From Escherichia coli (lineage in GTDB: Bacteria; Pseudomonadota; Gammaproteobacteria; Enterobacterales; Enterobacteriaceae), in assembly GCA_022969815.1 (NCBI GenBank), contig GCA_022969815.1_4535.1: 64,000 nucleotides of DNA. One strand, written 5' to 3'. The position numbers and the translations under genes are program-made. Position 1 is the first letter of the stretch. Each line of letters starts with the position of its first letter. Of this stretch, positions 5,055-32,973 are shown piece by piece. The notes under the pieces were generated by a model, which ran no database searches, was not told the DNA's origin, and saw only the letters and a list, made by a program, of their open reading frames with translations.

Positions 5055-5090
5055 TAACGCCCATTATAGGGCGTTATAACGAAAAGTCAA
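5055..5090 (-). promoter_or_regulatory. early promoter with palindrome over the -10 region
   Basis: -35 TTGACT (rc 5085-5090), 16-nt spacer, -10 TATAAT (rc 5063-5068), palindrome TAACGCCC-ATTA-TAGGGCGTTA 5055-5076. Confidence 0.6.
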
Positions 5091-5091
5091 A

Positions 5092-5259
5092 TTATTTTTT
5101 ACGGCTTAAGGTGCCCAGGTTATCAGCGTGGCGCAAACCAGGGAAGATCCACGCGCCTGATGCATCTTTCACAGGGGCTTTAAGCGTAGCGCCCAGGTTG
5201 GCGGCGTTAACTTTACGGGCAACGTTGCGAGCGGCTTCACGGGTAGTAAAAGTGATCAT
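5092..5259 (-). CDS. small protein, 55 aa (not in ORF track)
   Basis: ATG 5257-5259, reads MITFTTREAARNVARKVNAANLGATLKAPVKDASGAWIFPGLRHADNLGTLSRKK; follows module E12. Confidence 0.4.
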   Translation of the reverse strand: MITFTTREAARNVARKVNAANLGATLKAPVKDASGAWIFPGLRHADNLGTLSRKK

Positions 5260-5283
5260 GATGTTTTCCTCTTCTCTTTGTTA

Positions 5284-5345
5284 GGCGGTGGACCATTCCG
5301 CCGCCTTGATGTAATACAGTTTACTTTATTTTGTTAAGATTGCAA
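5284..5345 (-). promoter_or_regulatory. early promoter-hairpin module E12
   Basis: hairpin 5284-5305; -10 TAAACT (rc 5318-5323); -35 TTGCAA 5340-5345. Confidence 0.55.
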
Positions 5346-5351
5346 GTAGTT

Positions 5352-5567
5352 TTATGAAATAATTGTCAAAGTAAAATCATAATCTTTTGACAGTTTATAT
5401 TGCACCTTGTTACCGTATATGTCACCTTTACGTAAAGATCCACGGATACCGATAACATCCTTCACGTCTTTTAAATTTTTCACGCCTGTAATGTCTTTGT
5501 TGAAATACTCGTCATCTGAAAATAAAACTTGACTTGCATTTTTTAACAGTGTGCGGATATTAGCCAT
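5352..5567 (-). CDS. hypothetical early protein, 71 aa
   Basis: ATG 5565-5567. Confidence 0.55.
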   Translation of the reverse strand: MANIRTLLKNASQVLFSDDEYFNKDITGVKNLKDVKDVIGIRGSLRKGDIYGNKVQYKLSKDYDFTLTIIS

Positions 5568-20493: not shown

Positions 20494-20862
20494 ATGAAAG
20501 TCTTGAACTTCTACCATTTAGGTAAAGTTGTTCCCGACACTGCAACATACATTGGACGCGCGATGCCCCACTTCGGGCTGAAAGCGTCAAAGTTTGCCAA
20601 CCCGTTCAAACTGAAAGAGGATGAACCAAGAGGTGCTACTATCCAAAGATACAAAGAGTGGTTGTGGGATCAGATTCGTTCTGGTAAGATAACTCTTGAA
20701 GATTTGTTGGAGTTGGAAGGTAAAGATGTAGTCTGCTTTTGCTCGCCACAACCGTGCCACGGAGATGTGCTCGTTGCAGCCGTGACATGGGCGAGAAGGG
20801 AATACGATAGACGTAATCCACCGTTTGTGGATGGGTATTGGAACTGGGAGGAGAATCTATGA
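20494..20862 (+). CDS. DUF4326-like protein, 122 aa
   Basis: G(K/R)...NPF...(V/L)xCFCSPQPCHGDVL pattern. Confidence 0.55.
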   Translation: MKVLNFYHLGKVVPDTATYIGRAMPHFGLKASKFANPFKLKEDEPRGATIQRYKEWLWDQIRSGKITLEDLLELEGKDVVCFCSPQPCHGDVLVAAVTWARREYDRRNPPFVDGYWNWEENL

Positions 20863-21743: not shown

Positions 21744-23345
21744 GTGTCTAATAATTTGAGTTTCACTCCAACCGAAGAGCAATTTGCTATTGAGCGTGCT
21801 TTCGGGGAAAACCGTTTTGTAACTATTCAAGCAAAATCTGGTTCGGGGAAAACATCTACCCTATACATGCTGGCAAATGGCACAGACAAGAGCATCCTGT
21901 ACCTGGCATTCAACAAAAGCATGGCAGAAGAAGCGCGTCGTAAGATGCCGAGTAATGTAGAGTGTCGAACTCTGCACTCAATTTGCTATCAGAAGCTTCC
22001 GCAAAATTTACGTCACAAACTCTCACGTCCTGAAGGAAAATATGTGAATGTGGCGGGAACAGGTAGCGAAATCGCCAAGAAGTTTAAGATCCAAAACCTT
22101 ATTGATAAAAACGGAAAGACTTTGGTCACTCGTGCTATGATCGGTTTAATGGTTAAACAAACTTTGGCTAAATATGAGTTTTCAGATGATGAGCATATCT
22201 CTTTGAAACACTTCCCTAAAATGCACATCTCTGACCTGAAACGTAAGAATGTGAATGAGAATAAGCTGATCGCAGAAGTCGTTAAATATGCAAAACAATT
22301 GTGGCGTGAGCGTATTGATCCTAACTCGGAAACGATCATGACTCATGACACCTATGTGAAACTGTTCGAACTATCGGGCGAAGACTTAGGGTATGATATC
22401 ATCTTTGGTGATGAGTTCCAGGATGTTAACCCTGCGTTTCTGTCTATCCTGTGTAACGCAGAAAAGGCCAGTCGTATTGTGGTTGTAGGTGATGAGTTCC
22501 AGAGTATTTATCAGTTCCGAGGTAGTCAGAACATGATGAAAGAGACTGCTCAATATGGTGTGGAATTACCATTGACAGCATGTTTCCGTTTTGGTCCTAA
22601 AGTGGCAGATATTGCTAATGCGATCCTTAGTGATAAAACTCCCCTGGCCCATCCATTGGTAGGGAAAGGGTATAACACGGTGACAGGTAGCTTCCACTCG
22701 GATATAGTGGACTTCTCCAAACCGTACACAATCATCTTCCGTAAAAACCTGACATTGCTTATGGATGCAATGGATCGTATTGCGAACGGAGAAGATATCA
22801 ATATTAACGTTGACACCAAAGATTTTATTGCTATGGTGGACAGTGTGAATGCATTGCGTCGCGGAGATATTGATAAAGTTAAGCATGAGACTGTTCTCCC
22901 TTATGCAGACTGGCAGGAGTTTGTGGATTGTGCAGAATCAGATCCAGACGCTAAACGTTTACTGAATATTGTTGTTTCCGGTAAGGCTAACAATATTGCT
23001 TATACGTTGCGTATGCACCGTAATTCACCTACAGCAAAGGTGACGCTGACCACAGCACACAAATCGAAAGGTTTGGAATGGGATCAAGTTATCGTTGCAA
23101 ATGACTTCCCTTCAAACTATGATAAGAAGACACGCGAGTGGGTAGGACTGGAAGAATCTGAACGTAACCTTCTGTATGTTGCTCACACACGTTGTATTAA
23201 ATGTTTGCAGTGGAATGAGACAGTGCATGAGATCTTAACCATGCAGCAATTAGGCGGAGATACATCTCCTAAGATGACTGAAGAAGATGAAATGGTTGCA
23301 GCATTGGCTCGTAAGATCAAGCAGATTCGATGCGAGGAGTATTAA
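21744..23345 (+). CDS. SF1 UvrD/Rep-like DNA helicase, 533 aa
   Basis: Walker A AKSGSGKTS, motif II VVVGDEFQ, motif VI TAHKSKGLEWDQV; GTG start 21744 with AAGGAGG SD just after the upstream stop. Confidence 0.85.
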   Translation: MSNNLSFTPTEEQFAIERAFGENRFVTIQAKSGSGKTSTLYMLANGTDKSILYLAFNKSMAEEARRKMPSNVECRTLHSICYQKLPQNLRHKLSRPEGKYVNVAGTGSEIAKKFKIQNLIDKNGKTLVTRAMIGLMVKQTLAKYEFSDDEHISLKHFPKMHISDLKRKNVNENKLIAEVVKYAKQLWRERIDPNSETIMTHDTYVKLFELSGEDLGYDIIFGDEFQDVNPAFLSILCNAEKASRIVVVGDEFQSIYQFRGSQNMMKETAQYGVELPLTACFRFGPKVADIANAILSDKTPLAHPLVGKGYNTVTGSFHSDIVDFSKPYTIIFRKNLTLLMDAMDRIANGEDININVDTKDFIAMVDSVNALRRGDIDKVKHETVLPYADWQEFVDCAESDPDAKRLLNIVVSGKANNIAYTLRMHRNSPTAKVTLTTAHKSKGLEWDQVIVANDFPSNYDKKTREWVGLEESERNLLYVAHTRCIKCLQWNETVHEILTMQQLGGDTSPKMTEEDEMVAALARKIKQIRCEEY

Positions 23346-23346
23346 T

Positions 23347-23598
23347 ATGGCGGGTTATCATTTAATAGATATTGAGAAACAACCTTACGGCAGTATTGAA
23401 AAGATTCAGGAAGAAGTTTATGAACTTTTTGATGCTGTCGAACAGGATTGCAGACTTATGCAATTGGTCGAATTGTCAGATATTGTGGGTGCTGTTGAAG
23501 GTGTGCTGGAGACACAGTTTCCTGGGATGACGTTGCAAGATTTGATCACTATGTCAGACCTTACCAAACGTGCTTTCCGCACAGGAGGAAGATCATGA
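23347..23598 (+). CDS. hypothetical protein, 83 aa
   Basis: ATG 23347 with GAGGAG SD chosen over the track start 23287. Confidence 0.5.
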   Translation: MAGYHLIDIEKQPYGSIEKIQEEVYELFDAVEQDCRLMQLVELSDIVGAVEGVLETQFPGMTLQDLITMSDLTKRAFRTGGRS

Positions 23599-24158
23599 AT
23601 GGGGAAGTCATTGCCAATGCGATCCACTATTACGGACGCTATGCACAAATGATTCAAGTACCTTACCTGGTAGATGCAGATATTCTTGCATACACACTAC
23701 CAGAAGGTAAAGAGGATCGCCCTTTGGGGCATCCTAATGGGAGATTCTATGTTGCCAGCGCAGAACAATCCTTCCTCCAGATGGAGAAAGATGGTTTTGA
23801 GTTTGTAGCAGAACACCCTTATATGGCATTGACCCCATGTTACCGCACAGAAGATGTTCTTGATGAAAGTCATTTTAACATCTTTCTGAAACTGGAATTG
23901 ATTGAGTTTTATCCGAAACATGGACCTATAGCATATGCAAAGGATATGTGTAATTTTCTTTGGACCTATTATAGTCTGGAAACACGTATAGTAAAAACTG
24001 AAATAGGGTTTGACGTGGAAGACAAATATGGGTTAGAATTAGGGTCATTCGGAATGAGGAATTCTCCGAAAGGTCATCCGTACATGTATGCCACAGGCAT
24101 AGCAGAACCACGAGCATCTATTGCTCTTAACCACAGAGAGGGGTTTATTTATGAATAA
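23595..24158 (+). CDS. hypothetical protein with class II aminoacyl-tRNA synthetase-like motifs, 187 aa
   Basis: PCYRTEDVLDESH...LELIEFY resembles class II motif 2; GLELGSFGMR resembles motif 3; tentative. Confidence 0.45.
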   Translation: MNGEVIANAIHYYGRYAQMIQVPYLVDADILAYTLPEGKEDRPLGHPNGRFYVASAEQSFLQMEKDGFEFVAEHPYMALTPCYRTEDVLDESHFNIFLKLELIEFYPKHGPIAYAKDMCNFLWTYYSLETRIVKTEIGFDVEDKYGLELGSFGMRNSPKGHPYMYATGIAEPRASIALNHREGFIYE

Positions 24159-25653
24159 GTCGATGGAAGAATTGGTTAAATATTATGTCCACACAGAAGA
24201 CCTGACAGATGCAGAGTTTACCAAGATCTATGATCTTTGCGAGCAGATTCAGCAAGGTCCGTGGGACAACGAAGAAGATTTTCGTAATGATGTAGGCGCA
24301 GAGACAGGGTTTTTGTTCTTTGATCCGTCTAATGGTATTGATGCTACACACTCCGAGGATTATCTGCCAGCAGGTGTTTCTTCTGTTACCACTACCGAAC
24401 ATTTTATTGATCTGCTTTTGGAGACAGCCTGGTGTGATTCGAAGCCTATCTACTACTGCATGAAGGATACGCTGCGTATGGCAGCAAGTCGTCTGTACGA
24501 TGGGAACTCCCGTTTATATACGGCTGTAGCCGCGCTTTATGGGAATGGTTGGACTGCCGATCAACTCCAAAAAGCTTGGGAAGAAGGGCATGGTGGGCGT
24601 GACGTTGTTATTTTCTCTGAAGTTTTAGGGGTGGATTCTATCTCCTATGAAAATATTCCACGCTTAGGGACAAAACCAGAAATCATAGATGGAGAAGAAA
24701 TGTTAGATCTTATTTTAGCTAAAGTGGCAGGGCGATCTATTCACGAAGTGTGCGTATCTACCAGAAAGATTTCCACAAGTCAAATGGAATCTCTTTTAAA
24801 GATTTTCACCCTGGTAACTGGTGAAGGGTATTGGAAAGATGCTGAACATTTTCTGATGTATAGTCGTGGTCTGTCTGAACACTACTCTTTCTATAGTTCT
24901 AAGTCGGGGATTGATGGTCACAACAGTCCACAAGGATTAGAAATAGGTGTTGACGAATTTATCAAACTGTTTTTGAAGCATTTAGGTATTGACAATACCG
25001 AGAAATCATTGGAAGATATCATTGCTGACTTAACAAAAGAAGGAGATAAAGTGGAAGAGAATACTTTTGAAGTTGAAGAATATGTGGACGAATATCTTCC
25101 GAACCCTGGTTTCCCTCCAGAGGGTAATCCTTATGTGAAGATCGTCTGCCGTAACGGGCAAACTTTCACAGGTCCAGCCGATGATATGGGTTGGAGAGTA
25201 GATGAGAACCATCCTGATAATTGGGATCTGGTGAAATACATGATTGTTCCGCGTGTAGCTAAAGTGGAGGCTGTTCGAGATGATGTGGTTGCTCCGGTAT
25301 ATGCACCTAAACCACGTTATCGCAAGACTCGCCAAAAACCTCCTGTAGGTAAGAAGCCAGTTGTGCGTATTCTCTACACCACACAACAAACCTACATGTT
25401 TAAGAATGTGGACAGTGTACAGGTTACAGGCGAGAAAGTGTATATCCAATATGCGCGTAATATTGCAGAAGGTATTGTTGAGTCTGTTGTTTCCGAGATC
25501 GACAGCAATCTGCTTCTCGCGGTGGTGATTGAAGAGAATGGACACCGTGATAACTTCTTAGCTAACATCGACGGTTCTTGGGATTACCAAGGTCATGATG
25601 GTACTGCCGTTAAAGGTGGTAAGCTGATGGGACGACAGTTCCTTTCTAAATAA
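24151..25653 (+). CDS. hypothetical protein, 500 aa
   Basis: ATG 24151 chosen (8-nt overlap with the upstream gene); no recognisable motif. Confidence 0.65.
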   Translation: MNKSMEELVKYYVHTEDLTDAEFTKIYDLCEQIQQGPWDNEEDFRNDVGAETGFLFFDPSNGIDATHSEDYLPAGVSSVTTTEHFIDLLLETAWCDSKPIYYCMKDTLRMAASRLYDGNSRLYTAVAALYGNGWTADQLQKAWEEGHGGRDVVIFSEVLGVDSISYENIPRLGTKPEIIDGEEMLDLILAKVAGRSIHEVCVSTRKISTSQMESLLKIFTLVTGEGYWKDAEHFLMYSRGLSEHYSFYSSKSGIDGHNSPQGLEIGVDEFIKLFLKHLGIDNTEKSLEDIIADLTKEGDKVEENTFEVEEYVDEYLPNPGFPPEGNPYVKIVCRNGQTFTGPADDMGWRVDENHPDNWDLVKYMIVPRVAKVEAVRDDVVAPVYAPKPRYRKTRQKPPVGKKPVVRILYTTQQTYMFKNVDSVQVTGEKVYIQYARNIAEGIVESVVSEIDSNLLLAVVIEENGHRDNFLANIDGSWDYQGHDGTAVKGGKLMGRQFLSK

Positions 25654-25898: not shown

Positions 25899-26501
25899 AT
25901 GCAACAACTGATCGTTAATATGCCTCGCACTGGTAATGAAGTTTTTGGTGTACCAGTAGACAAAGTTTGGAAAGCACACTTTCATCTGACCTTAGCCGAG
26001 GTAAGTAGTGAAGAGCTTATGCGAGCAGCAAAGATTATCGGTGCAAAATGCACAACTATCGATCTACATCGTGACACGCAATCACAACGCGATCGTATGT
26101 TAACTAAGTATCAGGGTGGCATTGACACAGGCTTGATGTTGGAATGTGTGGCAAAGTTAAAAGCTGCTGGCTTCAAAGTGTTACGCTATAAACTGGAACA
26201 AATGTTCAAGGATGTAGAACATGTAATGCAGATGAACCTAAGCAAAGAGCACTACGGAGAGGTACACATCAAGACTCCTGCTTCTATGCCGGAGATTGAC
26301 ACTGGCTTCTTCCGTATCTCTTCTAATGCAGAAGAGGTGGATTATCGTTTCTATAATGCCCGTCTGTATACCGAAGAAGATAAGTTGCAGTTCAAGAAAG
26401 CTTATGATATGCTTCTGGCACATAATGTTGAAATAAAGGGCTACCATGTAGAACAAGTGGTAGTAGACAGTAATCTTAACTTAGACGCATGGTGGGCTTA
26501 A
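25899..26501 (+). CDS. hypothetical protein, 200 aa
   Basis: ATG 25899, AAGGAG SD. Confidence 0.6.
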   Translation: MQQLIVNMPRTGNEVFGVPVDKVWKAHFHLTLAEVSSEELMRAAKIIGAKCTTIDLHRDTQSQRDRMLTKYQGGIDTGLMLECVAKLKAAGFKVLRYKLEQMFKDVEHVMQMNLSKEHYGEVHIKTPASMPEIDTGFFRISSNAEEVDYRFYNARLYTEEDKLQFKKAYDMLLAHNVEIKGYHVEQVVVDSNLNLDAWWA

Positions 26502-26502
26502 T

Positions 26503-27159
26503 ATGACAATCAAACACATTTCTTTCGATGTATGGAACACACTGATCACAGCAAACCCAAATTACGCGGATATGCGAGCTTGGACTATCGCAAAATACGG
26601 AGATATTTCGGAAGTAGAAGCAAGAGCAGCTTACAAGAAGATCAAAAAGGAACTGGATAATGCGGCACTTCAGGGAACAGCCGAGTGTGCAGCATATGCC
26701 TGGGAAAGACTTGGTTACGAACTTGGGATAACACCTTTGAAGTCTGCAAAGCTTCGTTTCGAGTGTGAACAATGGTTCCTTAAGTTTCCACCTCATGTAG
26801 CTGTGGATCTACCGATGCACTTGCTATATCTTTCGGGGCGTTATGATTTGAGCATTAAGAGCAATACCAACTTCATATCAGGAGATATCTTGCGACGTGC
26901 CTGTAAGTTTGAAAGTTGGAATTGTTTTGAGTTCACACATTTCTCGGATGAAGCTTTACTTTGTAAACCAGATCCGCGATTCTTTGCTCGCACGATCACT
27001 TATTCTCCAATCCCTCTGGTAGGGCAGGAAGTGTTGCACGTAGGTGATAGTGAAGAATATGATGGAAAATGTGTTGACGTAGGATTTAACTTCTGTCATA
27101 TTAAGAACCCTAACGACTTGTTAGATAAACTTGCTAAAGGAGAACTTGTTAATGCGTAA
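26503..27159 (+). CDS. HAD-superfamily hydrolase, 218 aa
   Basis: motif I FDVWNTL (haloacid-dehalogenase-like), motif III KPDP, motif IV GDSEEYD. Confidence 0.65.
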   Translation: MTIKHISFDVWNTLITANPNYADMRAWTIAKYGDISEVEARAAYKKIKKELDNAALQGTAECAAYAWERLGYELGITPLKSAKLRFECEQWFLKFPPHVAVDLPMHLLYLSGRYDLSIKSNTNFISGDILRRACKFESWNCFEFTHFSDEALLCKPDPRFFARTITYSPIPLVGQEVLHVGDSEEYDGKCVDVGFNFCHIKNPNDLLDKLAKGELVNA

Positions 27160-27979
27160 TCAAACTCAAATCTTTGCTCACAAATTTGATAATCTGGAAA
27201 CTGCTCGCTTTGATATTCGTGATTATTCCAAACTGAAGTTTGGTAGCAACCAGGCGGCACGCCGTATGGGGAAAACATTAGCAGTCTCTTTCTATGACTT
27301 GGTAGTCAAGAATATGCCGGAAGAAGAGTTTGTGGTGATCCCTTCACCTTACAATCATGTGCATAACGCAGCAACGATGATGACCAATCAGTTCATCAAC
27401 TTCCTGAACCTGTTGCTGTTGAATCACAAGGGTAGCCGTGCAGTAGAGTTGGATACGATCCACCGCAAGGTGAGTTACATTAACGATTATGGTTTCCTGG
27501 ACAAAGCAAGCCGTAAGAAACTGATCGACGGGGACACATTTTATTGCAACAAAGATTTTTGGGGCAACAAGAAGTTGATCTTCATTGATGATGTGAACAT
27601 CACGGGGACTCATGAAGACAAACTCATTGAGATCCTGGATGAAAACAAAGTTACAAACGATGTTTACTTCCTGTATTTTGCCAAGTACACTGGTAATCAA
27701 GCAGACACAGAAGCTAAACTGAACTTCAATCATATTAACACGACAGATGCTTTTGTTAAGATGATCAATGAAGAACAGGATGCACAATGTTTGGTTCGTC
27801 CTATCAAGTATCTGATGGGACAAGCACCGGAAGAGTTTAAAATCATTCTCTCCCGTCTGCCACACCGTTATGTAGAAGCACTGTTCTTTGGGTGTCTTGG
27901 GGAAGGTTATGACAAGATCGAGAAGTATTCTGAAAACTTCGTCTTCCTGAACCGTTACTTTAACCAACATATCCTGTAA
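27152..27979 (+). CDS. phosphoribosyltransferase-like protein, 275 aa
   Basis: PRPP-binding-loop-like LIFIDDVNITGT; ATG 27152 with AAAGGAG SD chosen. Confidence 0.5.
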   Translation: MRNQTQIFAHKFDNLETARFDIRDYSKLKFGSNQAARRMGKTLAVSFYDLVVKNMPEEEFVVIPSPYNHVHNAATMMTNQFINFLNLLLLNHKGSRAVELDTIHRKVSYINDYGFLDKASRKKLIDGDTFYCNKDFWGNKKLIFIDDVNITGTHEDKLIEILDENKVTNDVYFLYFAKYTGNQADTEAKLNFNHINTTDAFVKMINEEQDAQCLVRPIKYLMGQAPEEFKIILSRLPHRYVEALFFGCLGEGYDKIEKYSENFVFLNRYFNQHIL

Positions 27980-27988
27980 GGAGGCAAA

Positions 27989-28462
27989 ATGTTGAAGGTT
28001 GTTACTGGGAATCTGATCGATGCAGCCAAGAATGGGGAAGTGAACGTTATAGCCCACTGTTGTAACTGTATGTGTAATATGGGTGCAGGAATTGCTCCGC
28101 AAATTAAACGAGCATTTCCTTATGCATATGCAGCAGATCTGGGCACAATGGCAGGTGATCAAAGTAAGTTAGGTTATTTTAGTTTAGGGGTGCCAGACGA
28201 ACAATCAGATCCTTTGGTATATAATCTATACGGGCAGTATCGTTATGGATACAATGCTAAAGGTCGTCAGTTGGACTATGATGCCCTCTACGATGCACTA
28301 ATAGCTATGGCTAATGATTTGCTTCTCCGTGACCAAAAATGTAAGATCGGTTTACCTATGATTGGAGCGGGACACGCTGGAGGTAATTGGGCTATCATCC
28401 AAGTGATGATTGAAGAAACTTTAGTAAAAACAGGTCACGATGTGACTATCTATAAACTTTAA
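27989..28462 (+). CDS. macro-domain protein, 157 aa
   Basis: VVTGNLIDA...VNVIAHCCNC...GAGIA and later GAGHAGG match the macro-domain (ADP-ribose binding/hydrolase) pattern. Confidence 0.7.
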   Translation: MLKVVTGNLIDAAKNGEVNVIAHCCNCMCNMGAGIAPQIKRAFPYAYAADLGTMAGDQSKLGYFSLGVPDEQSDPLVYNLYGQYRYGYNAKGRQLDYDALYDALIAMANDLLLRDQKCKIGLPMIGAGHAGGNWAIIQVMIEETLVKTGHDVTIYKL

Positions 28463-28475
28463 GAGGAGAAATATT

Positions 28476-28697
28476 ATGGGCGTTTTAGCAGGTATTCTTG
28501 CAGTGATTATTGTGTTTGTTATTGCTTTTCTGATCAGTATGATTCCAGCATGGCTTCTGCTGCTGGCTTATAACTACGTTGTTGAAATGATGGGTCACAC
28601 AGATATCACTGTTCCTATCACCTTCTGGACTGTGGTGTGTGTGGCATTTATCATGGCTGTACTACGTGGGATCTTTTCCTCAAGTTCTTCAAAATAA
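28476..28697 (+). CDS. small membrane protein with two hydrophobic segments, 73 aa
   Basis: AGGAG SD; predicted TM segments. Confidence 0.55.
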   Translation: MGVLAGILAVIIVFVIAFLISMIPAWLLLLAYNYVVEMMGHTDITVPITFWTVVCVAFIMAVLRGIFSSSSSK

Positions 28698-28700
28698 GTG

Positions 28701-28759
28701 TTGACAAAGTTTTAGAATAGAGTAAGATGTATCACATGAGGCGGGGAGTGGTTCCCCGC
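28701..28759 (+). promoter_or_regulatory. early-type promoter-hairpin module on the + strand, upstream of terC
   Basis: -35 TTGACA 28701-28706, 16-nt spacer, -10 TAAGAT 28723-28728, then GTATCACAT and hairpin GCGGGGAGTGGTTCCCCGC 28741-28759. Confidence 0.65.
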
Positions 28760-28778
28760 AAAGAGAAAGGAGAAAATA

Positions 28779-29753
28779 ATGCAACTTGGTTTCCCCATTA
28801 TTGATGTAGTGGTTCTGGTAGGTATCTTAGTACTGTCTATTGCGGTGGATTTTTTCGGGCACCGTGAGAACAAGGAGATCTCATTCAAATCAGCAGTCGG
28901 TTGGTCAATCTTTTGGATTGGGGTGTCACTGGCGTACTACGGTTTTGTATACTTCCAACATGGCGCTGACTTCGCCAACCTGTTCCTAAGTGGGTATGTG
29001 TTAGAGAAGTCGCTTTCGGTAGATAACTTAGTTGTGTTTGTGGCAGTGTTCACCAGTTTCGGTATTAAGAGCACGCACTTACAACATAAGATTCTGCTGT
29101 GGGGTATTGCAGGTGCGATTGTCTTCCGAGGTGTGTTTGTAGCAGCAGGTACTTACTTGTTAAGTTTGGGCTGGTATGTTAACATTATCTTCGGTGCTGT
29201 TATCCTGTTCTGTGCATTCAAAATGGTAATGGCTGGCGGGGATGATGAAGAAGTTGATTACTCTAAACATTGGGCTACCCGCGTCGTTCGTAAACTGTTC
29301 CCAGTATCGGATCAGATGGATGGTGAGAAGTTCTTCACGATTAAGAATGGTGTTCGTGTAGCAACTCCGGCTCTGGTTTGTGTGTTCGTGATGGAAATGG
29401 TAGATGTGATCTTTGCAGTAGACTCGGTTCCGGCTGTAATTGCAGTGACACAAGAACCTCTGCTGGTGTTCTCTTCGATGCTCTGTGCAATCTTAGGCTT
29501 ACGTGCTCTGTTCTTTGTTCTTAGTGTGGCCCTGAAGTATCTGGTTCACCTGGAGAAAGCAGTTATCGCGGTACTGGTGTTTGTTGGTGTGAAACTGATG
29601 TATCACCCGTTTGCAGAAACGCTGCACGCAAAAGTGAGCTTCCTGCCAGCGCATATTGACCCGACGATCAGCATGTATATCGTGCTTGGTACTCTGACCC
29701 TGGGCGTGATTGCAAGTTTCATCTTCCCTGAAAAAGAAGAAGCTACCGCTTAA
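28779..29753 (+). CDS. terC: TerC-family integral membrane protein, 324 aa
   Basis: multiple TM helices and the TerC signature EKSLSVDNL. Confidence 0.8.
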   Translation: MQLGFPIIDVVVLVGILVLSIAVDFFGHRENKEISFKSAVGWSIFWIGVSLAYYGFVYFQHGADFANLFLSGYVLEKSLSVDNLVVFVAVFTSFGIKSTHLQHKILLWGIAGAIVFRGVFVAAGTYLLSLGWYVNIIFGAVILFCAFKMVMAGGDDEEVDYSKHWATRVVRKLFPVSDQMDGEKFFTIKNGVRVATPALVCVFVMEMVDVIFAVDSVPAVIAVTQEPLLVFSSMLCAILGLRALFFVLSVALKYLVHLEKAVIAVLVFVGVKLMYHPFAETLHAKVSFLPAHIDPTISMYIVLGTLTLGVIASFIFPEKEEATA

Positions 29754-31273: not shown

Positions 31274-31864
31274 ATGAATACCGAGAGAGATTTAAAACTC
31301 TTGTGGTGGGAAGTGATGCAGGAGATCAAGGAAGATTTCCCTGTTTACTACAACATGCTACGTGAAGCTGGATATACGGCTTGCGTTAGGAACAAAGTGA
31401 ATAACTCTTTCGGTTGGTGCAACTACCGAGAAAAGATTGTTGTTGTGAATTGGTACTTGCATAAAAACTCCACAAGGGATATGATAGTGGACACAATGAA
31501 GCATGAAATTGCTCATGCTATTGATGGTTGTATGGGTAAGTTCAGTCGTCATGGACCACACTGGCAAAAACTGGCAGCAGAGTTGGGAGCCAATCCTAAA
31601 GCTACTTCCAAAGAACCGTTCAATCATGAATACAAATATGTTCTTGTTTTGGTAGACAGATTTGCCACAAGATGTGTTAGAGGGTATAATCGTAAACCTA
31701 ACCGTATGACTCCAGGGAAACAACCACATATTTGGTTGAAGAGTGATAAAGAGGGGACAGAAGGAAAAATATGGTTGTATAAATGGGAAGATTGGGTTAA
31801 AGTAGCTAAAGAATATGGTGTTTCACCTTACACAAGAGAAATAGAAGAGGAGAATGAAGAATGA
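31274..31864 (+). CDS. SprT-like zinc metallopeptidase, 196 aa
   Basis: HExxH motif MKHEIAHAIDG with a downstream H and SprT-like N-terminal region. Confidence 0.6.
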   Translation: MNTERDLKLLWWEVMQEIKEDFPVYYNMLREAGYTACVRNKVNNSFGWCNYREKIVVVNWYLHKNSTRDMIVDTMKHEIAHAIDGCMGKFSRHGPHWQKLAAELGANPKATSKEPFNHEYKYVLVLVDRFATRCVRGYNRKPNRMTPGKQPHIWLKSDKEGTEGKIWLYKWEDWVKVAKEYGVSPYTREIEEENEE

Positions 31865-32973
31865 CAAGTCCATTTTTGAAAGCGGCAACTGGTGGTCAAA
31901 AGAAATCTGAAACGAGTGTACTGACTGCTACTACAGACGCAAGCAAGTCCGTGTTCGCTCCGAGTGTCCTGGATGCAAGTCCGGTGTATGCTCCAGCAGC
32001 GCCAAAAGCTGTGCCTACCCTGCCAACAATGTCTCGTAAAGAGATTGAAGAAGTAGGTGCAGAAGCAGGTTTAACTCTCCGTTCTCTGAACGCTGAAGTG
32101 CTGAAGCACCAACGTAGCAATCAAGGTGACGAAATGAGTCAACGCCTTACCGCCTTGATTAAACAAGCCAAACAGCTTGATCCTGCCTCCATTAAGCAGA
32201 GTAAAGGTGTAGGTAAACTCATCAAGAAACTGATGGGGATGAAAGAAGATCTCTTCGGCGAGTTTGATAACGTGAACAACCGTATCGAAGAACTCGTTAA
32301 GAATCTTCAAATGGATATCCGTAAAGAAGAAGACTCTCTGGTGTACCTGGAGAAGCTGCACCAGGCGATCGGGCAGTACGCCGCAAGTCTGAATCGTGAT
32401 ATGGAATTACTCACAGCAGCTTATGAGCAAGAACTGGCTACTTTTGAAGCCACACCAGAAGATGATGTAGAAGCCCGTCAGAGCGTCCGTGACACGCTTG
32501 ATCTTCTGGAGATACGTATTGCTGACTTAAAGGCATTACGCTTGCTGTGCGTGCAAATGGGGCCGCGTGTACTGGGTATGCAGAAAGTATCTGCCAGCCT
32601 CATGCGTTCTGCTCGTAATATTGTGAACAATGTGATTCCTGCTTACTCTGCCAACTTCTCAATGTATATTGAAAGTCTGCGCCAGAAGAAAGCAGCAGAA
32701 ACACAGAACAACGTTCTGGACGAGTTCAACCTGGCAATCAAACTGGGTAGCGATCTTGCCACACAGAATCAGATCGAAGCAGCAGCACTGGCTAACCGCC
32801 AAGTGTTGGATATTGAAACCCTGCGTCACGATCAGGAAAACTTGGTTAAGATGTTGGAAGAAACTAACCGCATCAATACGGAAGCCCGTGCTGCCCGTGT
32901 TGATTACATCAATGAAGTTCAATCTCTCGAAGATGGGATGGTTGATGCTGTTAAGAAGGGGCTTGGTAAATGA
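31861..32973 (+). CDS. coiled-coil protein, possibly TelA-like, 370 aa
   Basis: long helical, charged repeats; size and composition are compatible with TelA-type proteins; family assignment unverified. Confidence 0.55.
   Translation: MTSPFLKAATGGQKKSETSVLTATTDASKSVFAPSVLDASPVYAPAAPKAVPTLPTMSRKEIEEVGAEAGLTLRSLNAEVLKHQRSNQGDEMSQRLTALIKQAKQLDPASIKQSKGVGKLIKKLMGMKEDLFGEFDNVNNRIEELVKNLQMDIRKEEDSLVYLEKLHQAIGQYAASLNRDMELLTAAYEQELATFEATPEDDVEARQSVRDTLDLLEIRIADLKALRLLCVQMGPRVLGMQKVSASLMRSARNIVNNVIPAYSANFSMYIESLRQKKAAETQNNVLDEFNLAIKLGSDLATQNQIEAAALANRQVLDIETLRHDQENLVKMLEETNRINTEARAARVDYINEVQSLEDGMVDAVKKGLGK

Follow-up and report, generated by a model that had tools for sequence, protein, structure and literature searches.

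A minimal SerRS-derived class II synthetase core with an obligate small partner protein in phi92-like phages and other large viruses

The 64-kb stretch of DNA analysed here (the window) belongs to a phi92-like Escherichia coli myovirus. Positions 23595-24158 of its + strand encode a 187-residue protein that is a minimal class II aminoacyl-tRNA synthetase (aaRS) catalytic core derived from seryl-tRNA synthetase (SerRS). This protein, hereafter called the mini-aaRS, has the class II fold, retains the catalytic residues of SerRS and is nearly always encoded beside, or fused to, a small acidic protein with which it is obligately and tightly associated. The pair is independent of the Ter-type gene block located downstream in the window. 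It is tentatively proposed that the two proteins are the pieces of one enzyme.

The mini-aaRS gene and its SerRS-like core

The features of the mini-aaRS gene are as follows.
23595-24158, + strand: mini class II aaRS-like catalytic core, 187 residues, SerRS-derived (phrog_4806, profile and structure).
23619-23672, + strand: motif 1, residues 9-26 (AIHYYGRYAQMIQVPYLV; P23), in which VPYLV is paired by hhalign with VPYLV of E. coli SerRS.
23757-23774, + strand: SAEQSF, residues 55-60, corresponding to the 'TAE' loop of SerRS (alignment with PTAE).
23832-23897, + strand: motif 2, residues 80-101 (TPCYRTE-DVLDESH-FNIFLKLE), with a short acidic loop (aligned to TPC(F/Y)R.E...H.F.K.E of SerRS).
24036-24059, + strand: E148-L-G-S151-F-G-M-R155, putative counterpart by pattern of the 'E-I-S-S-C-S' metal-binding strand of SerRS (strand 148-156 in the model).
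24087-24128, + strand: motif 3, residues 165-178 (YATGIAEPRASIAL; T167, R173), as placed by structure and pattern.

The open reading frame (ORF) starts with an ATG that lies 5 nt downstream of the Shine-Dalgarno sequence AGGAGGA and overlaps the stop codon of the upstream partner gene (ATGA). The ATG of the next gene (24151), which encodes a 500-residue protein, overlaps the last 8 nt of the mini-aaRS. These two overlaps indicate that the partner, the mini-aaRS and the 500-residue protein are encoded by three translationally coupled genes. A sequence-only reading of the window had singled out this ORF by two synthetase-like peptides, both of which are present in the translation.

The DNA of the region is 94-97% identical to that of phages phiWec190, phiWec179, phiWec181 and phiWec186 and of 'Pseudomonas' phage PsgM04F. 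The mini-aaRS is a genuine and widespread gene family and not a chance ORF, because the protein is 100% identical to one from phage phiWec188, because homologues occur in 273 phage records (tblastn) and because an exhaustive profile search recovered 1,620 clusters at 50% identity (1,074 with E-values of 1e-30 or lower), nearly all with lengths of 175-200 residues. Members are found in phages (including phi92-, rV5- and T4-like phages), in giant-virus-like contigs and in small-genome cells. The longer members carry N- or C-terminal extensions without recognizable domains, as do longer partner proteins. Public annotation of the family is inconsistent: the PHROGs match (phrog_4806, E-value: 3e-64) is labelled 'histidyl tRNA synthetase', and 'putative seryl-tRNA synthetase', 'RNA polymerase alpha CTD' and 'hypothetical' are used elsewhere. 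PsgM04F ('Pseudomonas phage', OR584014.1) and several 'Campylobacter phage' records (MG0656xx) encode proteins 76-99% identical to those of E. coli phi92-like phages in this region, which suggests host mislabelling or contamination of these records.

Searches of Pfam, NCBIfam, PADLOC and the PDB (phmmer) with the single protein gave no match, and the homology was seen only via PHROGs and with profile or structure methods. When an alignment of 47 mini-aaRS sequences (A1) was used as a profile, solved SerRS structures ranked first (2dq3, E-value: 2.3e-6), with weaker matches to AspRS, PylRS and AsnRS. Comparison with E. coli SerRS by hhalign pairs VPYLV with VPYLV (motif 1), T..LP with TGQLP, ASAEQ with PTAEV and, in motif 2, TPCYRTE...H..IFLKLE with TPCFRSE...R..HQFDKVE. 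The profile alignments begin at SerRS residue ~176-185 and bear out the sequence-only view that this class II core is far too short for a synthetase. No Pfam match to Seryl_tRNA_N was found; the protein starts at motif 1. Two relatives score above Pfam class II cutoffs (P0143 for tRNA-synt_2, 27.6 versus 25; P0217 for tRNA-synt_2d, 24.4 versus 19.8). The antiparallel beta-sheet catalytic fold of the class II superfamily is present.

The closest kin of the mini-aaRS is SerRS, not AsnA or HisRS. The same earlier reading had allowed either an aaRS or an AsnA-type amidoligase; the first of these holds, with SerRS nearest, and the second does not, as AsnA-type asparagine synthetase (~330 residues, AspRS/AsnRS-like pocket) is a more distant relative. 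The HisRS identity given by the PHROG and pharokka label was likewise rejected: no HisRS is present among the sequence-profile matches, the signature is SerRS-like, and the protein, which ends just past the motif 3 helix, has neither the histidine-binding motifs specific to HisRS nor a C-terminal anticodon-binding domain. Matches to HisRS and HisZ are structural only.

Residue conservation was counted in 377 diverse members and loop statistics in 275. Motif 1 has the expected helix and strand with a conserved Pro (P23, 89%). Motif 2 had been located correctly by the sequence-only reading and has the class II pattern fRxE-loop-(H/R)xxxF, with R84, F97, K99 and E101 conserved in 100% of members and H93 in 92%. 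The segment then taken for motif 3 (GLELGSFGMR, residues 146-155) is instead the strand that precedes it. On the basis of its pattern in the E. coli sequence and of established SerRS structures, strand 148-155 would be equivalent to the 'REISSCS' strand of SerRS, whose Glu and Ser bind the catalytic metal. Motif 3 itself is predicted at Y165-ATGIAEPRASIAL-178, where the model has a strand (162-171) followed by a helix (173-182), with T167-G-I-A-E-P-R173 at the junction; this segment matches N-G-S-G-L-A-V-G-R of E. coli SerRS, in accordance with the strand-then-helix, G.G...R character of motif 3, and R173 is invariant. Because the sequence-only profile gave no significant alignment of the C-terminal third to SerRS, this placement is based on structure and pattern.

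The positions conserved in 99-100% of members are S55, E57, Q58, C82, R84, F97, K99, E101, D140, E148, G150, S151, G153, T167, P172 and R173, of which E57, E101 and T167 reach 100%, in line with the SerRS pattern. In class II enzymes, such positions provide the two 'arginine tweezers', the adenine-stacking Phe, the metal ligands and the contacts to the alpha-amino group. E101 and T167 are presumably the counterparts of the residues that hold the serine hydroxyl in SerRS (the Glu after motif 2 and the Thr/Ser six residues before the motif 3 Arg), and E57 would likewise correspond to the serine-binding Glu of the TAE loop. Because the catalytic and substrate-contact positions are conserved to this degree, the mini-aaRS is likely to have an intact adenylation site, probably for serine.

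The mini-aaRS differs from SerRS in what surrounds this site. It lacks the N-terminal coiled-coil arm that binds tRNA-Ser at its variable arm, and its catalytic domain has ~180 residues compared to ~260 in SerRS. The motif 2 loop of SerRS, which contacts the acceptor stem, is long and basic (in E. coli, 13 mostly basic residues, AGSYGRDTRGLIR), whereas that of the mini-aaRS has only 6-7 residues with a mean charge of -1.8 and ends in His rather than the conserved Arg of SerRS in 273 of the 275 members.

The upstream partner gene

The features of the partner gene are as follows.
23347-23598, + strand: partner gene, 83 residues, small acidic three-helix protein of probable HisE/MazG type (phrog_6408, E-value: 4e-40).
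23410-23424, + strand: EExxE motif, residues E22-E23-x-x-E26 (invariant in alignments A2 and A4).
23470-23481, + strand: ExxD motif, residues E42-x-x-D45 (invariant in alignments A2 and A4).

The true start of the partner gene is the ATG at 23347. The mechanical ORF list gives an upstream ATG (23287), with which the gene would overlap that of the preceding helicase, whose stop codon is located at 23343-23345. The sequence GAGGAG is found 7 nt before the ATG at 23347, and the near-identical PsgM04F is annotated with an 83-residue coding sequence.

The mini-aaRS had been read as a stand-alone protein, a description that fails because the partner gene is present in 62 of 65 viral contig loci and is nearly always adjacent. 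Eight distant phages were compared all-against-all (a T4-like Acinetobacter phage, three Vequintavirinae, a Vibrio jumbo phage, Caulobacter phage CcrColossus, an Acinetobacter partial genome and Microcystis phage MaMV-DC). Only two genes are common to all of them: the mini-aaRS gene and the small partner ORF directly upstream of it, the two being fused in the Microcystis phage. Among the 65 loci, the partner is mostly immediately upstream, often with a stop/start overlap; in four it is directly downstream, and in three the core carries it as a C-terminal fusion. Of the best 120 matches to one fusion used as the query, more than 45 were further fusions. In the fusions, the invariant GYH of the partner starts a few residues past the motif 3 helix. 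A natural fusion was modelled as a single confident unit (predicted local distance difference test [pLDDT] 96.2, predicted template modelling [pTM] score 0.89) consisting, in order, of the core, an extended 17-residue segment and three helices. In some jumbo phages (L042, 4953-5858; L051, 5043-5990; L079, 7211-8017), the partner domain forms the C-terminal ~83 residues of a 270-315-residue protein, the N-terminal ~200 residues of which have no recognizable domain.

The invariant residues of the partner are an N-terminal G/Y/H, K19, E22-E23-x-x-E26, E42-x-x-D45 and the C-terminal F77, G80 and R82. In the fusion model, E22, E23, E26, E42 and D45 lie on helices 1 and 2. An EExxE...ExxD arrangement on helices is the metal- and triphosphate-binding signature of the all-alpha MazG/HisE nucleoside triphosphate (NTP) pyrophosphohydrolases. 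The Pfam PRA-PH (HisE) family is the commonest match (10 of 12 partner members, always below threshold, with a best E-value of 0.0013). A clean profile of the partner domain has as its best two PDB matches the HisE structure 2a7w (E-value: 0.09) and the MazG-family structure 1vmg (E-value: 0.17), in alignments that cover (S/G)Y..G..K..EE..E...E..D of the partner: EExxE is aligned with KvaEEaaE of 2a7w and with 1vmg, and ExxD with the E..aDL segment of the HisE and MazG structures. One partner homologue has been independently annotated as 'MazG-like', and JGI calls one fusion 'phosphoribosyl-ATP pyrophosphohydrolase'. The partner is therefore probably, although not conclusively, of the HisE/MazG type. 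It resembles HisE (phosphoribosyl-ATP pyrophosphohydrolase) and MazG in the pattern (S/G)Y...G...K..EE..E...E..D, in being helical and in size (~85-115 residues), but has only three helices and 83 residues and reaches no curated threshold. An invariant GYH N-terminus and a T.RAF..G.R C-terminus are peculiar to it, and it is always coupled to a mini-aaRS.

A carrier-protein function for the partner was considered and rejected because the lone candidate attachment Ser, that of ELSD, lacks conservation (the segment also reads ELAD, ELTD or EASD) and the invariant residues are of the acidic, metal-binding type. The pair differs in this respect from the amino acid:[carrier protein] ligases (SerRS-like homologues such as Bll0957, PDB 3mey), which are derived from the zinc-dependent methanogen-type SerRS, have ~300 residues and act with a phosphopantetheinylated carrier.

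Proposed reaction, genomic context and neighbouring genes

In the proposed two-piece enzyme, a single fused protein in other lineages, the mini-aaRS core would be the catalytic subunit and would condense ATP with serine, or with another amino acid of similarly small size, yielding an aminoacyl-adenylate and pyrophosphate. The EExxE...ExxD cluster of the partner would hold the Mg-triphosphate of a nucleotide. This nucleotide, presented by the partner, would be the second substrate in place of a specifically recognized tRNA, and the product would be either an Ap4N-type dinucleoside polyphosphate or an aminoacyl-nucleotide. Synthesis of Ap4N is a known side reaction of SerRS. A nucleotide is preferred as the second substrate because the core has lost the tRNA-binding arm and has a short, acidic motif 2 loop, and because its sole constant companion is a nucleotide-triphosphate-type module. 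Serine as the substrate and formation of the adenylate are inferred; the nucleotide acceptor and a biological role in the manipulation of nucleotide pools or signalling by large viruses are speculative. Taken as a whole, a serine-adenylating two-piece enzyme acting on a nucleotide substrate is a possibility held with limited confidence.

The opposite division of labour is also conceivable: the core could be a HisZ-like regulatory or sensor subunit that binds ATP and/or an amino acid without turnover and allosterically controls the partner, which as a HisE/MazG-like pyrophosphohydrolase would be the real enzyme and would remove, for instance, one specific NTP, an alarmone or a toxic nucleotide (e.g. 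the product of viperin). This is unlikely. The motif 2 Arg, the motif 3 Arg, the E..S metal ligands and the adenine-stacking Phe are all conserved in 99-100% of the 377 sequences, and a purely regulatory core is disfavoured because such conservation of residues needed only for catalysis would not be expected of it. HisZ (300-390 residues) pairs with HisG as the non-catalytic regulatory subunit of ATP phosphoribosyltransferase; the mini-aaRS, in contrast, keeps all ATP and Mg ligands, has a sequence signature like that of SerRS rather than HisRS/HisZ and is not associated with hisG.

Several observations weigh against the proposed enzyme. The HisE/MazG assignment of the partner is below threshold in each individual test, and nothing was found when its profile was compared by hhalign with one E. 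coli sequence each of HisI and MazG. T167 and E101 are tentatively equated with residues that bind serine in SerRS on the basis of pattern matching and of Thermus thermophilus SerRS structures rather than of a computed superposition. The genomic context also points in part towards tRNA: tRNA genes lie within 6 kb of the pair in 13 of 47 loci, and in five jumbo-phage loci (L039, L043, L045, L061 and L075) the pair is inside a tRNA array. Within the same distance, 15 of 73 loci encode RlaP, eight a CCA-adding enzyme and two PTH2. RlaP is a nucleotidyltransferase that repairs RNA and tRNA 3' ends (PMC12776372). The two PTH2 genes are in L058 and in L052, a 448-kb phage contig in which the partner gene was not found; in the latter, a single small ORF separates the mini-aaRS from PTH2 (5078-5521, E-value: 7e-24), which is ~0.5 kb upstream.

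These associations could be explained by a tRNA-end enzyme, one of the tools with which large phages maintain and repair tRNAs. The target of the core, for aminoacylation or some other action, would be the universal CCA end, either of tRNAs or of a phage-encoded tRNA-like RNA, and the partner would assist with ATP or pyrophosphate. Possible purposes are to keep 3' ends charged, and thereby shielded from host toxins that attack uncharged ends (MenT/AbiEii-type nucleotidyltransferases), or to restore function after repair. Such an enzyme would be consistent with the SerRS origin of the core and its full set of catalytic residues, with the TROVE/Ro-like gene and tRNA-Gln near the pair in CcrColossus and, in the window, with the presence of an AbiEi-like gene two genes further downstream. 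MenT3 prefers tRNA-Ser (PMC11541572), which also fits. However, ~1,600 clusters contain neither a tRNA-binding arm nor any RNA-binding domain, and acidity is seen both in the short motif 2 loop and in the two proteins as a whole (median isoelectric points of 5.2 and 5.5). The obligate NTP-pyrophosphatase-like partner is left unexplained by a role at tRNA ends. Where giant viruses depend on SerRS, they encode the full-length enzyme, and an archaeal-type contig (L081) has a normal full-length SerRS beside the fusion, so that the mini-aaRS coexists with SerRS in at least one cellular genome. The 64-kb window encodes no tRNA, RlaP, CCA-adding enzyme or PTH2, and the Rfam and tRNA scans of it were empty. 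Proximity is in any case a weak argument, since tRNA genes are intermixed with nucleotide genes in the early regions of large phages. A tRNA-end enzyme is judged rather improbable but is the main rival of the proposed enzyme.

The rest of the context is varied. In T4-like phages the pair is found among nrdC/nrdH-type genes. One fused gene is located in an 835-kb cellular-type contig with genes for ABC transporters, PPDK, NrdR, a Nudix protein and nucleoside deoxyribosyltransferase; that of L081 is accompanied by CDC48, ThyA, DHFR and NDK, and two further fusions are in contigs resembling those of eukaryotic giant viruses. Radical SAM genes occur within a few kb of the pair in several phage loci. 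In both cellular-type contigs, homologous radical SAM proteins of ~230-255 residues (L078, 2355-3125; L081, 7808-8509; 28% identity, E-value: 1e-16) overlap or abut the fusion. Family matches of these proteins are sub-threshold, the best being to MoaA, viperin and HpnH, all radical SAM enzymes that act on nucleotides, and the arrangement may be a three-gene nucleotide-modification unit. RlaP, CCA-adding enzyme, PTH2 and radical SAM genes each recur in only a minority of loci. Loosely, then, the context themes of the pair are tRNA biology and nucleotide metabolism. No third conserved neighbour was found by blastp clustering, in which no other family occurred in more than 8 of the 65 loci.

Further downstream in the window, a block at 26503-29753 (+ strand) encodes a HAD hydrolase, a PRTase_3/ComF-like phosphoribosyltransferase (PRTase; E-value: 5e-41), a DarG-like macro domain protein, a small membrane protein and TerC. 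The combination of HAD, PRTase and TerC/TerD is known as the phage 'Ter system', which has no aaRS-like component and has been predicted to function in superinfection exclusion or signalling (PMC7824862). The block is a phage-borne Ter-type module separate from the pair. PsgM04F has a 'tellurite resistance protein' annotated a few kb beyond the block, which by homology corresponds to ~31860-32970 of the window.

The sequence-only reading had put the mini-aaRS at the head of the HAD/PRTase/macro block, and as the first enzyme of such a pathway it would ligate an amino acid onto a nucleoside-like metabolite. The two gene sets are on the same strand and 2-4 kb apart in phi92-like phages, they co-occur in Brevundimonas and some Caulobacter jumbo phages, and a HisE-like and a HisZ-like protein beside a PRTase recall the first steps of histidine biosynthesis. 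An operon link was nevertheless rejected on neighbourhoods and genome-level distributions. PRTase, HAD, TerC and TerD are not co-conserved with the pair in the eight distant phages or the 65 viral loci. The PRTase occurs in 157 phage records, which are mostly phi92-like but include Rhizobium, Brevundimonas, a few Caulobacter and one Xanthomonas phage. Many pair-bearing records have no listed PRTase match, namely those of Acinetobacter T4-like phages (61 records versus one) and of Pectobacterium, Cronobacter, Erwinia and Microcystis phages, and the PRTase-bearing Rhizobium phages are absent from the pair-bearing genera listed. In CcrColossus and Papperlapapp, the pair and the PRTase are ~95-120 kb apart. 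In the window, three unrelated genes intervene (encoding the 500-residue protein, a small ORF and the AbiEi-like protein). The pathway function is largely refuted by this distribution and is considered very improbable.

Of the intervening genes, that at 25899-26501 (+ strand) encodes a 200-residue protein of phrog_22504 ('unknown') with a near full-length match to an AbiEi antitoxin family (PADLOC, E-value: 4.4e-13). It could be a decoy antitoxin against host AbiE/MenT-type toxins, the nucleotidyltransferases that act on tRNA ends, and is not co-conserved with the mini-aaRS. The 500-residue protein (24151-25653, + strand) has no Pfam match, and only its C-terminal ~116 residues match anything (phrog_15930, 'ribonucleotide reductase'); this label looks unreliable. 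A gene at 20494-20862 (+ strand) has as its counterparts, by synteny with PsgM04F, small proteins to which pharokka gives the label 'NrdA-like ribonucleotide reductase'. In locus L013, the ORF of the same blastp cluster is a DUF4326 protein (Pfam, E-value: 1.7e-21); the cluster is represented in 8 of the 65 pair neighbourhoods, and its members are directly downstream of the mini-aaRS in L014, L016 and L017. The genes around the pair are small, of the early or middle class, and form a long block on the plus strand. The GC skew of the window is negative to ~16 kb, positive from ~16 to 48 kb and slightly negative thereafter, in agreement with gene blocks on opposite strands.

Novelty and significance

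No description of the mini-aaRS family was found in the literature searched, and a survey of jumbo phages does not mention it (PMC7824862). The existence of the ORF family is already known, in databases, under inconsistent automatic labels only. The SerRS origin, the retention of all catalytic residues within ~180 residues, the obligate HisE/MazG-like partner with its frequent fusion and the spread across phages, giant-virus-like contigs and small-genome cells appear to be undescribed there. Other truncated synthetase paralogues, namely EpmA/PoxA/GenX, AsnA and GluQRS/YadB, have different parents (LysRS, AspRS/AsnRS and GluRS, respectively) and 290-330 residues, and none has a MazG/HisE-like partner. 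Such paralogues (HisZ, EpmA, AsnA, GluQRS and the amino acid:carrier-protein ligases) have repeatedly provided unexpected chemistry. The automatic labels 'histidyl tRNA synthetase' and 'seryl-tRNA synthetase' are misleading and spread through databases, and the family includes phi92-, rV5- and T4-like phages used in therapy research.

The broadest form of the proposal is that large viruses of bacteria and eukaryotes, together with some ultra-small cells, share a hitherto unrecognized two-subunit enzyme in which the core and the HisE/MazG-like module form a composite active site that would make a nucleotide-amino-acid conjugate or a dinucleoside polyphosphate, a new viral metabolite or signal. 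This is advanced as a doubtful but interesting possibility. The identity of the product would define a new virus-encoded activity. The mini-aaRS is in addition a natural minimal class II core that structural biologists could compare with engineered urzymes; if the proposal is true, this core of ~175-190 residues would be the smallest natural class II synthetase core, 'urzyme-sized' and relevant to models of the origins of the synthetases.

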